Source: Syntrophales bacterium
GTDB taxonomy: Bacteria > Desulfobacterota > Syntrophia > Syntrophales > UBA2210
DNA length: 64,000 nt
Assembly: GCA_963662405.2 (NCBI GenBank)
Contig: CAXXKT010000001.1
Location: 1,568,001 to 1,632,000, forward strand
Direction: 5' to 3'
Positions 22,753 through 28,940 of this stretch are shown here, in pieces. How positions within the stretch are numbered: position 1 is the stretch's first letter; every line of letters begins with the position of its first letter. Below the pieces are notes generated by a model. The model saw nothing but the letters and a program-made list of their open reading frames with translations, was not told the origin of the DNA and ran no database searches. The translations under genes and the position numbers were made by a program.

Positions 22753-23074
22753 TGTAATCGTATGTCCTTATGCCCCGGCAGTAACCATTTCCACAATCAA
22801 GAAAAACGATAGTAGCACCCTGGGCTGATATTTTCAAAGATATGATGCGGATCGGGTCATTTTCGACACAACGGCCCGAGGATCCCGTGGGGCTGATTCG
22901 GGATAGAGGAATACGAACAGGACCTGCTTCTTGACTTCCTAGGTGTTTCGTGTAAGAATCATTCGACTAAGAATATTTATACGTGGCAACGATTGAGGAA
23001 GTAATTTAAAACAGGGAAGCCGCCAGGCGGTAGATGACCGGTCCCCGGATGCCGCTGGAGGCTGCGTGACGGAG

Positions 23075-23626
23075 ATGCCTTTTCATAAAAAAGATAAATC
23101 GGAGAATTTGGAATCCCTTCCCGTATTTTTTGAACATACCGGAATCGATGAAACGTTCGACATCGGGCAAGATGGATCGGACGAAGGCTGCAGTTTCCGG
23201 ATCCTGGTTGCCCTGCGCCGGATCATGCATTTTGTCGATGCCTATTCCAAGAAACTCGCAGTTGATTACCATATAACAGGGCCACAGCTCATCTGTCTCT
23301 ATTCCATCGTGAAGGAAGGACCCCTGACCCTTTCGGATCTGGGGAGGCGAGTCAGCCTGAGCATGAGCACCGTGAACGGAATTGTCGATCGCCTTGATTA
23401 TAAGGAACTTGTCGTGCGTGAGCGGAGGGATCGGGACCGCCGCAAGGTGCTCATTTCGGCTACTGATTCCGGAAGGCAATTGGCGTCACAGGCCCCGCTC
23501 CCCCTGCAAGATCGGCTTGCCCAAGCGATTACACGATTGCCTGAGGAGGAGCAGGCTTCAATTGCCCTTTCATTTGAAAGGGTCGTGGAGATGATGGAGG
23601 TGAAGAGTTCATTTCCCCGTACCTGA
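23075..23626 (+). CDS. MarR-family regulator (EctR-like context)
   Basis: ITGPQLICL, STVNGIVDRL, DRRKV; upstream of compatible-solute transporter. Confidence 0.88.
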   Translation: MPFHKKDKSENLESLPVFFEHTGIDETFDIGQDGSDEGCSFRILVALRRIMHFVDAYSKKLAVDYHITGPQLICLYSIVKEGPLTLSDLGRRVSLSMSTVNGIVDRLDYKELVVRERRDRDRRKVLISATDSGRQLASQAPLPLQDRLAQAITRLPEEEQASIALSFERVVEMMEVKSSFPRT

Positions 23627-23793
23627 CGGTGCGCACCTGGGTGATGGATCCGGGCACTGAAAAGGTTTACAGGCAAGGGATCACACCTGTCCGGTATACC
23701 CGTCGGCTTACTCCGAATTCCTCCCAAAATTAAAGATACGGTGTATACGAGACAAACCCGTTTGTCTCATCATCATGAGGAGATTGCAGAAAC

Positions 23794-24993
23794 ATGGCTG
23801 AGAAAATTATTGTTGAACATCTGTTCAAGATCTTTGGAGATCATCCCGAAAAGGCGCTCAAGCTCTACAAGGAGGGCCTTTCCAAGGACGATATCATGGA
23901 AAAAACCCGTCAGACGATTGGGGTCGCCGATGTCTCTTTTACGGTTAACGAAGGTGAGATCCTTGTAATAATGGGGCTTTCAGGGAGCGGAAAATCGACC
24001 CTGGTCCGCTGTATCAATCGGCTGATCGAGCCGTCGTACGGAAAGATCACCCTTGACGGGGTTGATGTTACCACCCTCTCCAGCGAAGCGCTTCGCAAGC
24101 TGCGGCAGGAGCGCTTCGGGATGGTATTTCAGCATTTTGCCCTTTTCCCCCGGCGGACCGTCATCAAAAATGTGGAATACGGACTGGAGATCCAGAAGGT
24201 TCCCCCCCCCGTTCGCGAGGAAAAGGCAATCCAGGCCTTGGAACAGGTTGGTCTCAAGGGGTGGGAAGATTCATATCCCGGCCAACTCAGCGGGGGGATG
24301 CAGCAGCGAGTGGGGCTGGCGCGGGCACTGGCGCTTGATCCGGATATCATGCTGATGGACGAGGCCTTCAGCGCCCTGGATCCCCTTATCAGGAGAGACA
24401 TGCAGGACGAACTCCTCGACCTTCAGGAACGGGTACAGAAGACGATCATCTTCATCAGTCATGATCTCGATGAGGCCCTCAAGCTGGGGGATCGGATTAT
24501 CCTCATGAAGGACGGGAAGATTGTCCAGGAAGGGACCGCGGAGGATATCCTGACGAATCCGGCTGATGAATATGTGGAAAAATTTGTTGAGGATGTGGAC
24601 CTTTCCAAGGTGATCACCGCCGAGACCGTTATGAAAAACCCGTTGGAGGTGGCCAGTTTTGCCCATGACGGCCCCAAGGCCGCCCTGTGGAAGATGAAGA
24701 AGGCGGGGATATCCAGTATCTTTGTCCAACACAAGGGAAAGGTACAGGGGATCGTCAACGCCGATGACGCCGCCCGGGCCCTCAAAAACGGTGAGAAGGA
24801 CCTGACCGGGATCCTGCGGACGGATATCGTCACTGTAACGCCCGATACACTTGCATCGGAGCTGTTCCCCCTCTTGGCGGAGTCGAGCCCGGTTGCCGTG
24901 GTGAATACCGAAGGGAAACTGAAAGGGGTCATCGTCAAGGGATCTCTGATAGCAGCGCTTTCTGAAGGAGTAAACAACAATGGAACAACTTAG
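23794..24993 (+). CDS. proV: Glycine betaine/proline ABC ATPase
   Basis: GLSGSGKST, LSGGMQQRVGLAR, DEAFSALDP, CBS tail. Confidence 0.95.
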   Translation: MAEKIIVEHLFKIFGDHPEKALKLYKEGLSKDDIMEKTRQTIGVADVSFTVNEGEILVIMGLSGSGKSTLVRCINRLIEPSYGKITLDGVDVTTLSSEALRKLRQERFGMVFQHFALFPRRTVIKNVEYGLEIQKVPPPVREEKAIQALEQVGLKGWEDSYPGQLSGGMQQRVGLARALALDPDIMLMDEAFSALDPLIRRDMQDELLDLQERVQKTIIFISHDLDEALKLGDRIILMKDGKIVQEGTAEDILTNPADEYVEKFVEDVDLSKVITAETVMKNPLEVASFAHDGPKAALWKMKKAGISSIFVQHKGKVQGIVNADDAARALKNGEKDLTGILRTDIVTVTPDTLASELFPLLAESSPVAVVNTEGKLKGVIVKGSLIAALSEGVNNNGTT

Positions 24994-25825
24994 AATACCG
25001 ATCGGTAAGACAATCGAGTGGCTGATCGAGCTCTTTACCGAGCATTTCTCATTTATCACCATCGCCTTTTCCCAGGTAACGGAAAACGGGATCAAATATC
25101 TCGTAAAGGTGATGATGTTTCCCCCGCCATGGGTACTCATTGTGATCTTTACCGGACTGGCCTGGTATTTGAGCAAGAGGAGGGGGATTGCCCTCTTTAC
25201 TGTTATCGGCCTGTCCCTGATCTGGAACATGGGGTTGTGGCACCCGACGGTGAGCACGATAGCCCTGGTCCTCATCTCGACCCTGATAGCAATATTGATC
25301 GGCATGCCTTTGGGGATTGTCTCGGCGCTGAATCAGACCGCCTATCGGGTCATCATGCCGATCCTGGATGTAATGCAGACGATGCCTGCCTTTGTCTATC
25401 TCATCCCGGCCATCCCGCTCTTTGGTCTCGGTCCGGTGGGCGCGATATTTTCGACGGTCATCTTTGCCATGCCGCCAGCGATCCGGCTGACCTGTCTGGG
25501 CATCAGGCAGGTCCCCGTTGAGCTGATCGAGGCCGCAGACGCCTTTGGAAGTACCAAGGGACAGAAGCTGTTCAAGCTTCAGCTTCCCATGGCAACCCCC
25601 ACCATCATGGCCGGAATCAATCAGACCATCATGCTGGCGCTGTCCATGGTAGTGATCGCCGCGATGATTGGTGCCAAGGGCCTCGGCGGCGAGGTGTGGA
25701 AGGCGATTCAGCGGCTCCAGCCCGATCGGGGGTTTGAGGCGGGTATCGCCATCGTCATTATTGCCATGATCCTTGATCGCATCATGCAGAGGATCGGGGG
25801 CAAGGCGGAGGGGACACCGGAGTGA
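24980..25825 (+). CDS. proW: Glycine betaine ABC permease
   Basis: DVMQTMPAFVYLIP, EAADAFG, GINQTIMLALSMVV. Confidence 0.95.
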   Translation: MEQLRIPIGKTIEWLIELFTEHFSFITIAFSQVTENGIKYLVKVMMFPPPWVLIVIFTGLAWYLSKRRGIALFTVIGLSLIWNMGLWHPTVSTIALVLISTLIAILIGMPLGIVSALNQTAYRVIMPILDVMQTMPAFVYLIPAIPLFGLGPVGAIFSTVIFAMPPAIRLTCLGIRQVPVELIEAADAFGSTKGQKLFKLQLPMATPTIMAGINQTIMLALSMVVIAAMIGAKGLGGEVWKAIQRLQPDRGFEAGIAIVIIAMILDRIMQRIGGKAEGTPE

Positions 25826-25894
25826 TAGAGCGAGGGTATACACAAAAACAGAAAAAGGATGATTCGGAGAAACAAACACAAAGAGGAGGAAGGT

Positions 25895-26746
25895 ATGAAA
25901 AAGATCGGCTTAGTGGTTATTATTGTAGCACTGGCTTTGGTCCTGGGGCCCATTTCCAGTACGTATGCGGCAAAGGGAGAGGTTGAGCTGGCCTATGTTG
26001 AATGGTCATGCGCGACGGCGAGCGTGAATGTGGTGAAGGCGGTGTTGGAGGAGAAGCTGGGATACACGGTAGAGATTACCCCCGTGAGCGCGGCCGCCAT
26101 GTGGCAGGCCCTTGCCAGCGGAGATGTGGACGGGATAACGACGGCCTGGCTCCCGGTCACGCACGCCCATTACATCGCGAAGGTCAAGGACAAGGTCGTC
26201 GACCTGGGATCCAACTGTGAAGGTGCGGGGATCGGCCTGGTGGCACCCACCTATGTGACGATCGATTCCATCGGTGAGATGAATGCCGTCGCCGATAAAT
26301 TCGACGGCAAGATCATCGGTATCGATCCCGGTGCGGGGCTCATGAGTAAGACCGAAAAGGCCATCAAGGAGTACGGACTGACCAAGTTTGAGCTGATGGA
26401 GGGGACCGGGGCCATCATGACCGCCGTCTTGAAGAATAAGATAAAGAAAAAAGAATGGGTTGTTGTGACCGGATGGACTCCGCATTGGAAGTTTGCCCGG
26501 TGGGACCTGAAATATCTCAAGGATCCCAAGGGTATTTTCGGCGGGGCCGAGGAGATCAGGACGATCGTCCGCACGGGACTCGACAAGGATATGCCGGAGG
26601 TATACCGCTTCCTCGATAAATTTCACTGGAACCTGGCGGAGATCGGCCAGGTAATGGGGTGGAACGCCGACGGCGCTGATCCCTATGAATCCGCCAAACG
26701 CTGGATCAAGGAAAATCCGGACCGTGTCAATGAGTGGTTGAAATAA
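25895..26746 (+). CDS. proX: Glycine betaine ABC substrate-binding protein
   Basis: Signal peptide, AWLP, IIGIDPGAG, GWTPHW. Confidence 0.92.
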   Translation: MKKIGLVVIIVALALVLGPISSTYAAKGEVELAYVEWSCATASVNVVKAVLEEKLGYTVEITPVSAAAMWQALASGDVDGITTAWLPVTHAHYIAKVKDKVVDLGSNCEGAGIGLVAPTYVTIDSIGEMNAVADKFDGKIIGIDPGAGLMSKTEKAIKEYGLTKFELMEGTGAIMTAVLKNKIKKKEWVVVTGWTPHWKFARWDLKYLKDPKGIFGGAEEIRTIVRTGLDKDMPEVYRFLDKFHWNLAEIGQVMGWNADGADPYESAKRWIKENPDRVNEWLK

Positions 26747-26784: not shown

Positions 26785-26818
26785 ACGGCCGCCCCGGACG
26801 GGGGGGCCGTTTTTTTTA
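26785..26818. terminator. Rho-independent terminator between proX and the convergent small ORF
   Basis: ACGGCCGCCCC-ggac-GGGGGGGCCGT followed by a T-run. Confidence 0.8.
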
Positions 26819-26820
26819 TG

Positions 26821-26976
26821 TTATGTGTTCCTATCGGACTTTTCATTCGGGTTCCTTTTGTCCGCCACCTGGCAGGTCTGATTCATTCAGGTGGGTATCC
26901 CCATCTTCGGGAATATATAGGACTGAAGAACAACCCAGACAGTGACAATCCCCAGAAGAATCAATATGTCGTGCAT
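26821..26976 (-). CDS. Small membrane-anchored putative selenoprotein, 51 aa (UxxxxC)
   Basis: MHDILILLGIVTVWVVLQSYIFPKMGIPT-TGA-MNQTCQVADKRNPNEKSDRNT-TAA; RBS GAGGGAG; own promoter; hairpin after the UGA. Confidence 0.72.
26862..26875 (-). promoter_or_regulatory. Candidate SECIS hairpin
   Basis: CTGCC-AGGT-GGCGG after an 11-nt spacer 3' of the UGA; loop resembles the E. coli fdhF SECIS (AGGU). Confidence 0.6.
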
Positions 26977-27002
26977 GCTCTCCCTCGCCACTCTTTTTCC
27001 GT

Positions 27003-27031
27003 AAGATAGTGTCCTGTTTCTTCCTTGTCAA
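27003..27031 (-). promoter_or_regulatory. Sigma70-type promoter of the small ORF
   Basis: TTGACA-17 nt-TATCTT on the minus strand. Confidence 0.7.
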
Positions 27032-27239: not shown

Positions 27240-28940
27240 ATGGTTCATCAGAAAAAAATCATCGTAATCGGTGGTTCGGCCGCAGGTCCCAAAGCGGCCG
27301 CCAAGGCACGAAGGTTGGATTACCATGCTGATATCGTCATCCTGCAAAAGGCGCCCGATCTCTCCATGGCCTCCTGCGGATATCCGTACTATGTCGGTGG
27401 GTATTTCGACGACCGGAATATGCTTCTGTGTACACCGACGGGTGTGACACGAGATCCCCTCTATTATCTCAACGCAAAGGGGATCGAGGCGCAGACGAAC
27501 ACCGAGGTAACGGCAATCGACCGGAAGGCCAGGATCGTCTCCTGTACGAACCTGTTGACGGGAGAGAAACAACAGCTCGCGTACGACAAGCTCGTTATCG
27601 CCACGGGTGCCGTCCCCAAGATGCCGCCGGTTCCGGGGACCGATCTCGACGGGGTTACCACGCTCCAGTCAATGAGGGATGCTGATTTTCTTCGAAAGGT
27701 TCGTGACGAGGGGAAGATCAAGAAGGCCGTCGTGATCGGAGGGGGTCTGATCGGGATCGAGACCTGCGAGGCCCTCCAACTGGCAGGGATAGAAATTACG
27801 GTGGTCGAACTTCTTCCCCAGCTCCTGACCTTTCTCGACTGGGAACTCGCCAAGCTGGTTGAGAACCACGTGAGGGCCAAATCGGCGAATGTCATCACCG
27901 ATAACGGTGTTGTTCAGTTTCTCGGACAGGATGGAAAACTGAGTGGCGTGAAACTTCAAAACGGCGCCGAACTGGCCTGTGAGCTGGCCGTCATCGCCAT
28001 CGGTGTGTCGCCCAATGTGCGTCTCGCGAAGGAGGCGGGGCTGAAGATCGGTGAGACGGGTGGGATCGAGGTCAATGAATATATGCAGACCTCGGACGAG
28101 GATATCTATGCCGTGGGAGATTGTGTCGAATCGTTCAATCGCATCACGGGGAAGAAGGTCCTGGCCCCCTATGGAGATGTCGCCAATCTGCAGGGGCGTA
28201 TTGCCGGTGAAAATGCGGCGGCCGGAAACAGTGTTGTCTTCCCGGGAGTCATCCAGACGGGGATCTGCAAGGTATTCGATTACGCCGCCGGCTCGACGGG
28301 TCTCTCCGAAACGGTAGCTAAAAGGCTGGGGTACGATGATATCATCACGGCAGTCAACGCGAGCCCCGATAAACCCGGTTTCATGGAGGGACAACTCCTG
28401 GTTACCAAGCTGGTTGCCGACCGGAAGACCGGCAAGGTCCTCGGGGCGCAGTGCATGGGCCCGGGAAATGTGAGTAAACAGATCGCCCAGTGGGCAATGG
28501 CCATCCAGGGAGGTCTCACGGTTGAGGATATCGTCAATTCCGACCTGCCCTACGCGCCGCCCTTCTCTCTCGCGATAGATCATTTCATCGCGACGGCCCA
28601 CATCATGCAGAATAAGATCAAGGGGAGAATGAAGGGCATATCGGTGACGGAGGTCAAGCAGAAACTGGAAAACCATGAAAAACCCTTCATGCTGGATACG
28701 CGCGGGCCGGACGAGTATGAAGAGATGCGCCTCGGTATCGGAGAGTCCATTATCCCTCTCGGCGCCCTGCGCAGACGCCTGAACGAACTCCCCGAAGATA
28801 AGGATCAGGAGATCATCTGTTTCTGCAAGATATCTCTCAGGGGGTACGAGGCGGCGCTCGTTCTCGAGGCGAACGGATGGAAGAACGTCAAGGTAATGGA
28901 AGGCGGTATCATGGCGTGGCCCTACGCGCGTGATAAATAA
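27240..28940 (+). CDS. CoA-disulfide/persulfide reductase-like flavoprotein with C-terminal rhodanese
   Basis: VIGGSAAG, SMASCGYPY, GGGLIGIE, YAVGDC, YAPPFS, FCKISLRG. Confidence 0.9.
   Translation: MVHQKKIIVIGGSAAGPKAAAKARRLDYHADIVILQKAPDLSMASCGYPYYVGGYFDDRNMLLCTPTGVTRDPLYYLNAKGIEAQTNTEVTAIDRKARIVSCTNLLTGEKQQLAYDKLVIATGAVPKMPPVPGTDLDGVTTLQSMRDADFLRKVRDEGKIKKAVVIGGGLIGIETCEALQLAGIEITVVELLPQLLTFLDWELAKLVENHVRAKSANVITDNGVVQFLGQDGKLSGVKLQNGAELACELAVIAIGVSPNVRLAKEAGLKIGETGGIEVNEYMQTSDEDIYAVGDCVESFNRITGKKVLAPYGDVANLQGRIAGENAAAGNSVVFPGVIQTGICKVFDYAAGSTGLSETVAKRLGYDDIITAVNASPDKPGFMEGQLLVTKLVADRKTGKVLGAQCMGPGNVSKQIAQWAMAIQGGLTVEDIVNSDLPYAPPFSLAIDHFIATAHIMQNKIKGRMKGISVTEVKQKLENHEKPFMLDTRGPDEYEEMRLGIGESIIPLGALRRRLNELPEDKDQEIICFCKISLRGYEAALVLEANGWKNVKVMEGGIMAWPYARDK

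Follow-up and report, generated by a model that had tools for sequence, protein, structure and literature searches.

A small gene on the minus strand (26976-26821) of the window, the whole 64,000-nt stretch of a Syntrophales bacterium contig that we analysed, encodes, with a probability of about 0.93, a genuine selenoprotein with selenocysteine (Sec) at an in-frame UGA. The read-through protein is 51 residues long and carries U30 and C35. The parts of the gene as originally predicted, from promoter, ribosome-binding site and ATG through the transmembrane (TM) segment, TGA, hairpin and Cys to the TAA, were all found where they had been placed:

27003..27031, minus: sigma-70-like promoter TTGACA-17-TATCTT (consensus match only, 10/12)
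26980..26986, minus: Shine-Dalgarno-like GAGGGAG (from sequence)
26821..26976, minus: coding sequence for the read-through protein of 51 aa, or for 29 aa should the UGA terminate (ATG at 26976, TAA at 26823-26821)
26905..26973, minus: single TM helix, residues 2-24 (AlphaFold; N-out/C-in orientation suggested by the positive-inside rule)
26887..26889, minus: in-frame UGA, predicted Sec30 (codon 30; conserved TGA, with TGC/TGT in Cys homologs)
26862..26875, minus: SECIS-like hairpin CTGCC-AGGT-GGCGG with a 5-bp stem and an AGGU loop (folding and bSECIS criteria)
26872..26874, minus: Cys35 codon, the UxxxxC partner, inside the 5′ arm of the SECIS stem (from sequence)
26785-26810 (hairpin) and 26810-26817 (T-run), plus: GC-rich hairpin and T8 run, resembling a proX terminator
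27240..28940, plus: divergent CoA-disulfide/persulfide-reductase-like gene with a C-terminal rhodanese domain (profile match below the TIGR03385 cut-off)

Promoter-like sites occur at 4 per 2.5 kb, against 1.6 ± 1.1 in shuffles. An ATG or GTG lies 28-30 codons 5′ of the TGA in all 31 loci examined, with a purine-rich stretch before most of them. The divergent CoA-persulfide reductase/rhodanese gene had been foreseen and is present as a CoA-disulfide-reductase-like gene, below the TIGR03385 cut-off, but a terminator common to the small gene and proX was not borne out. Since the T-run lies on the plus (proX) strand and the minus strand has no U tail, the hairpin beyond the TAA resembles a terminator of proX; a terminator scan gave a weaker, separate minus-strand terminator-like site at 26768-26748. 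In the neighbouring segment (23066-26746), a MarR-like gene precedes a glycine betaine/choline ABC transporter operon of the proVWX type, which converges on the small gene (proX was named by family match, the other genes by eye). A second copy of the family is present in the source genome (C1:2475316-2475465; L009:5317-5475, plus strand). It is 37% identical, with the TGA in the same register and a 53-aa read-through product.

Conservation of the UGA and its hairpin

The family gene was found in 139 of 301 genomes of the source's phylum, Desulfobacterota, and each listed match includes a TGA. At the aligned site, TGA stands in 142 of 143 phylum loci (one locus is unparsed), while the final stops of the same 143 loci are mixed (TAA 56, TGA 46, TAG 41). 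An ordinary stop would vary, so this uniformity favours a recoded UGA. Homologs ending in TAA or TAG at the site, which would have spoken against recoding, were not seen in any parsed locus; L158, which has an unparsed site but one TGA in its match, and L223, a weak and unparsed match, were left out. Beyond the UGA, the read-through frame runs on for 11 or more codons in all 190 TGA loci (4 of them duplicates), and the other two frames close before 11 codons in 92 and 80 of these loci. A Cys at +4 to +7 after the UGA appears in 169 of the 190 in the read-through frame vs. 0 and 11 in the other frames. The in-frame UGA is thus conserved in homologs with coding conservation beyond it, the pattern that marks a bacterial selenoprotein.

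The predicted UxxxxC motif, U30/C35 in the window, recurs with some play in its spacing: 124 of the 143 phylum loci have a Cys at +4 to +7, most often at +5 (96 loci) or +6 (27 loci). In 15 of the 143, the first 12 residues past the UGA include no Cys, so a resolving Cys is not universal. One divergent subgroup, f35 (L086, L090, L096, L150 and L172), keeps the TGA with Gly or Gln at +1 and has its nearest Cys far downstream.

The hairpin in the window starts 11 nt after the UGA, with a predicted energy of −7.6 kcal/mol and its loop 16 nt from the UGA. The bSECIS rules in section 5 of PMC13188914 call for a loop of 3-9 nt, a stem of 4-16 bp, a G in the first two loop positions, a spacing of 16-37 nt and a minimum free energy of at most −7.5. 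Applied directly, they fit this hairpin throughout (AGGU loop, 5 bp, 16 nt, −7.6 kcal/mol), with spacing and energy at their limits. Taken alone, the hairpin does not exceed dinucleotide shuffles in stability (z = −0.62); its significance comes from comparison across the family. Measured against synonymous shuffles, which preserve the protein sequence, positions +7 to +39 of 143 phylum TGA genes gave a mean z of −2.01, with 139 of the 143 below 0, and 131 hairpins with a G in the loop and at most −3 kcal/mol were observed vs. 29.5 expected. TGA genes of a second phylum behaved in the same way (mean z = −1.83, n = 17), whereas Cys genes gave means of only −0.43 (n = 14) and −0.20 (n = 20). Among 27 family-level relatives, third-position differences stood at 0.59 upstream of the UGA and at 0.23 across the hairpin codons. 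Of 40 same-register hairpins, 28 have C-G and 11 have T-A at the pair +15/+22; because these hairpins were chosen for pairing, the count is supporting only. SECIS-type selection is thus seen in TGA genes, and not in Cys genes.

Homologs with a Cys codon (TGC/TGT) at the Sec site exist. A search for a Thr-Cys pattern gave 14 GTDB loci, from Planctomycetes, Myxococcales/Polyangia, Deltaproteobacteria, Chloroflexota, Cyanobacteriota and Bacteroidota, and 29 metagenome loci, of which 28 were parsed. Many of the Cys forms have an extra Cys in the tail. selB was found in 134 of the 139 TGA-carrier genomes of the phylum, and the remaining 5 have selA and tRNA-Sec; in contrast, it was found in 2 of the 14 Cys-carrier genomes (MAGs, completeness not given). 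Because the background of selB in the phylum is itself high (280 of 301 genomes), the contrast with the Cys carriers is the informative part.

As predicted, the source genome has the full Sec machinery: selA, selB, selD and tRNA-Sec (selC). Its selD (C3:552135-553065, L014), which has an in-frame TGA and hairpin of its own, is assembled as two pieces in different frames. At the frameshift, a depth-4.1 contig from sequencing run X1, which may be the source sample, is shorter by one base; an assembly error is therefore the probable cause. Sec read-through, the core of the original prediction, is upheld by the conserved UGA, by Sec/Cys interchange, by SECIS-type selection and by this machinery, and the homologs show both coding conservation 3′ of the UGA and Cys in its place.

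Range of the family and its earlier listing

The family gene is present in 28 of 41 close relatives of the source. In the second phylum, that of the Planctomycetaceae MAG G301, it was found in 20 of 201 genomes, 19 of them with TGA at the site; selA was found in 17 of these 19 vs. 146 of the 201 overall, a modest excess, and not in the one Cys carrier. A wider search gave 1,779 clusters at 50% identity (E ≤ 0.001), most of which were not inspected. Desulfonema ishimotonii (DENIS_2149) is a named cultured carrier. Two matches to viral contigs span 9-13 residues only and were treated as chance.

Gene callers had been expected to truncate the protein at 29 aa, and many 29-aa "hypothetical protein" entries in databases are indeed this family cut at the UGA. 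Of 259 stored proteins, 252 were parsed: 114 of these stop at this position, and the others have Cys (91), Trp (36) or another residue (11) there; the Trp forms would be code-4 mis-calls. Protein collections mostly give the family in a 29-aa truncated form or with a mistaken Trp, so it is probably overlooked when selenoproteins are counted in sulfate reducers, syntrophs and some planctomycetes. Found in 139 of 301 sampled genomes, it would be among the commonest selenoproteins of its phylum, yet no family model or description of it was found.

The novelty that the original prediction implied in assigning the protein to no named family does not extend to Sec itself, because the family is already labelled a predicted selenoprotein in six entries of deep-Sep Data S1. 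These entries share with our protein the TM helix, the motif ILP[KR][LM]G[IV]xT, U at the same site and a Cys five residues on, and one of them nearly matches L031/P0242; the comparison was made by eye, and the family has no formal definition. By its TM helix and its P-x-x-G-x-x-T-U-x4-C motif, with U in the same register, the window's protein belongs to this labelled family.

The deep-Sep listing is a label on six sequences only. The family is not among the 9 "Hypothetical" rows of Table S1 of that paper, and a motif search of the table was empty. In the accessible part of a 2026 review (PMC13188914), including its 119-family table, the family name does not appear, and that table as accessible shows no UxxxxC motif. 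Nor does the name appear in the accessible main texts, to which the search was confined, of PMC9312934, PMC2398784 and PMC5029168; PMC1914089, as far as accessible, lists other Geobacter candidates. The family may be among the 111 of BSepDB (PMC13326102). Our search of the full-text literature found no functional description of the family, nor an account of its topology, Cys orthologs, range or context, nor the first prediction behind the deep-Sep label. New here, then, are the family's breadth, its Cys orthologs, the Sec/Cys pairing with SECIS selection, the probable cytoplasm-facing topology and the thioredoxin/sulfur neighbours.

Membrane topology and possible relatives

The membrane anchor foreseen for the protein is evident as a hydrophobic segment at residues 4-22 (mean Kyte-Doolittle 2.38) and, in the AlphaFold model, as a helix at residues 2-24 followed by an unstructured tail (pLDDT 70.9, pTM 0.40). 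Trp14, Pro23 and Gly26 are invariant in a 31-row alignment. Lys and Arg are commoner C-terminal of the helix in 150 of the 150 loci for which a start was found. Positively charged residues favour the cytoplasmic side of a membrane (the positive-inside rule), and we therefore infer from the sequence an N-out/C-in topology that puts U30 and C35 on the cytoplasmic side, some six residues from where the helix ends.

Pfam and NCBIfam scans of the protein and 31 homologs gave nothing above noise, and a search of PDB sequences with an 86-row profile gave a best E of 0.12. In the ESM Atlas, a Cys homolog retrieved one unnamed cluster at 0.88, a lead only. Several small selenoproteins modelled in NCBIfam (KCU-star, NF033934; dual-CXXC, NF041197; UXX-star; SaoC; LULAXC TsoA) are likewise small, routinely truncated at UGA and have Sec near Cys, but neither these models nor any other selenoprotein model matches any of 31 family members at E ≤ 0.1.

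Two other families of small membrane proteins with a Cys beside a helix, the YgaP-like TM domain (PF11127) and DUF6132 (PF19628), occur in the same gene clusters. Homology to them was considered and rejected: profile-profile probabilities were 1.8 and 14.1% for PF11127 and 2.4% for PF19628, none of them significant, over alignments of 8-12 columns only, and no profile match was obtained. The likeness of motifs is short (GxxTC in the small protein, CxxGxC in the others), and both families have two helices (a two-helix hairpin with GxCP in the YgaP-like domain, helix-GCxxGxCP-helix in DUF6132) where the small protein has one. Separately, one DUF6132 gene (L194; G052:C30:8270-8419, minus strand), in 1 of 61 genomes searched, has two in-frame TGAs, each with a hairpin 3′ of it (−14.1 and −22.2 kcal/mol). 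The second TGA replaces the second Cys of GCxxGxCP (CSGST-TGA), and the gene is a candidate Sec form of DUF6132, for which no entry was found in deep-Sep Table S1 or in the accessible part of the 2026 selenoprotein table.

Gene context and proposed role

The commonest neighbour of the gene encodes a zinc ribbon of the FmdB type, present at 35 of 143 loci from 12 of 51 families; at 32 of these loci it lies within 700 nt, always in the orientation of the small gene. Thioredoxin/CcdA genes lie nearby at 21 loci in 10 of the 51 families and also at 7 of 14 Cys loci; ArsR genes do so at 14 loci in 6 of the 51. The complete cassette, ArsR-small gene-FmdB-thioredoxin-CcdA, occurs in L029 and L108. 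Cys forms lie near genes for rhodanese-YgaP, MBL-rhodanese, TauE and SQR-like flavoproteins, or between thioredoxin, DUF6132 and CcdA-thioredoxin genes.

A thiol or sulfur marker lay within 1.5 kb at 58 of the 143 loci in the phylum and, among Cys loci, at 10 of 14 from GTDB and 21 of 28 from metagenomes, compared with 1.5% of random windows of the source genome; these counts include related loci, which are not independent, and metagenome Cys loci that are highly redundant. The markers were chosen after the neighbours had been viewed, their profiles were built from those neighbours, the background is one genome, and L266, which does show TGA, was excluded from the count. Loci with no marker number 85 of 143 in the phylum, 15 of 19 in the second phylum and 22 of 25 among near relatives. 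The window's copy, too, stands alone. The CoA-persulfide reductase gene, to which the original prediction linked it, does adjoin it here, but that arrangement is kept in only 3 of the 25 near-relative loci, all in the same genus.

In two TGA loci, L139 (G241:C100) and L163 (G269:C183), and in two Cys proteins (P0260 and P0261), the frame runs on into a WCGPC thioredoxin. These fusions keep an internal Met at the thioredoxin start, and a stop is present in four sister loci of the same family; the fusions may be lost stop codons.

We favour, at slightly better than even odds, a membrane-surface Sec/Cys redox peptide that becomes oxidised or persulfidated and is recycled by thioredoxin. Its topology, chemistry and partnership with thioredoxin are deduced, the role being based on gene context and the fusions, and the same odds apply to them. 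SelB bound to the hairpin just 3′ of the UGA would insert Sec30, giving a product with a short outside N-terminus and one helix; the sequence P-x-x-G-x-x-T-U-x-x-x-x-C would follow on the inner side of the membrane, ahead of a tail that is charged and variable. Sec would attack an oxidant or sulfane sulfur (persulfide, polysulfide or disulfide), the Cys would resolve the Sec adduct to a selenenylsulfide, and a cytoplasmic thioredoxin would reduce this again. The setting would be a module for thiol and reactive-sulfur homeostasis made up of thioredoxin, CcdA, an ArsR-type regulator, the FmdB zinc ribbon and rhodaneses.

The eukaryotic SELENOK and SELENOS are single-pass membrane proteins with Sec in a cytoplasmic, largely unstructured tail; they are larger, have Sec near the C-terminus and use a SECIS in the 3′-UTR. 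Our protein resembles them in its single pass and its predicted cytoplasmic-tail Sec, an architectural analogy only. A tentative extension of the redox reading, which we hold to be rather doubtful, makes it a minimal membrane-tethered Sec redox peptide, analogous in architecture to SELENOK/S, that captures reactive sulfur or oxidants on the cytoplasmic side of the membrane and passes them to thioredoxin and the CcdA or rhodanese relay. If true, reactive-sulfur homeostasis in anaerobes would gain a component that had so far gone unrecognised; should the thioredoxin/sulfur link alone hold, a very small membrane redox component would still join the handling of reactive sulfur in these organisms. 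Being only some 50 residues long and occurring naturally in both Sec and Cys forms, the peptide lends itself readily to experiment.

The same neighbourhoods could be read as pointing to a membrane-anchored binder or sensor of metals or metalloids (Zn, Cu, Hg or As), with U and C as ligands, working with FmdB and a metal-sensing ArsR/SmtB. The prevalence of the FmdB gene, close by and co-directional, and the ArsR genes suit metal handling equally well, and many Cys forms have the extra tail Cys. We nevertheless think this unlikely: the fusions join thioredoxin and not metal proteins, the Cys forms keep the company of thioredoxin, CcdA, rhodanese, TauE and SQR-like genes listed above, and Pfam identified no metal pump among 43 representatives of neighbour clusters.

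It is also improbable that the protein is a small accessory subunit whose Sec would serve a membrane enzyme or transporter with its gene at another locus (CcdA/DsbD, for example, or a respiratory complex). The single TM helix with its invariant Trp, Pro and Gly does suggest a packing surface, the gene stands alone in most loci, and CcdA is encoded within 1.5 kb at 7 phylum loci and 5 GTDB Cys loci, but no one partner accompanies the gene across families. Even less credible is a regulatory ORF, in which Sec read-through would sense selenium and translational coupling would set expression of the downstream gene, the peptide itself being minor. Such coupling would fit several families in which the read-through stop overlaps or abuts a downstream start (thioredoxin in f49, an ECF sigma factor in L026 and L033); however, the Cys forms retain the protein motif with no read-through to sense, the window's copy, like many others, is not followed by a gene on the same strand, and the TM helix is conserved at the protein level. 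Finally, a UGA acting as a plain stop, leaving a 29-aa membrane peptide and perhaps a separate tiny ORF, would agree with the finding that 86 of 142 loci have an ATG directly 3′ of the UGA, with the unexceptional single hairpin and with the 29-aa database entries, but is scarcely tenable given a site with no TAA or TAG in any parsed locus, Cys homologs that read on through it with the same Met, 56 loci that have no Met at +1, SECIS-type selection confined to TGA genes and co-occurrence with the Sec machinery.

Two further features of the neighbours were observed. The adjacent FmdB proteins (e.g. L029:1145-1327, minus strand; L037; L068) form a subtype with a Ser/Gly-rich tail, one more Cys and a terminal G-F-S/T. 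At six loci from three families (L035:1673-1864, plus strand, and five others), a 63-aa Cys-rich protein with no Pfam match is encoded directly 3′ of the small gene.
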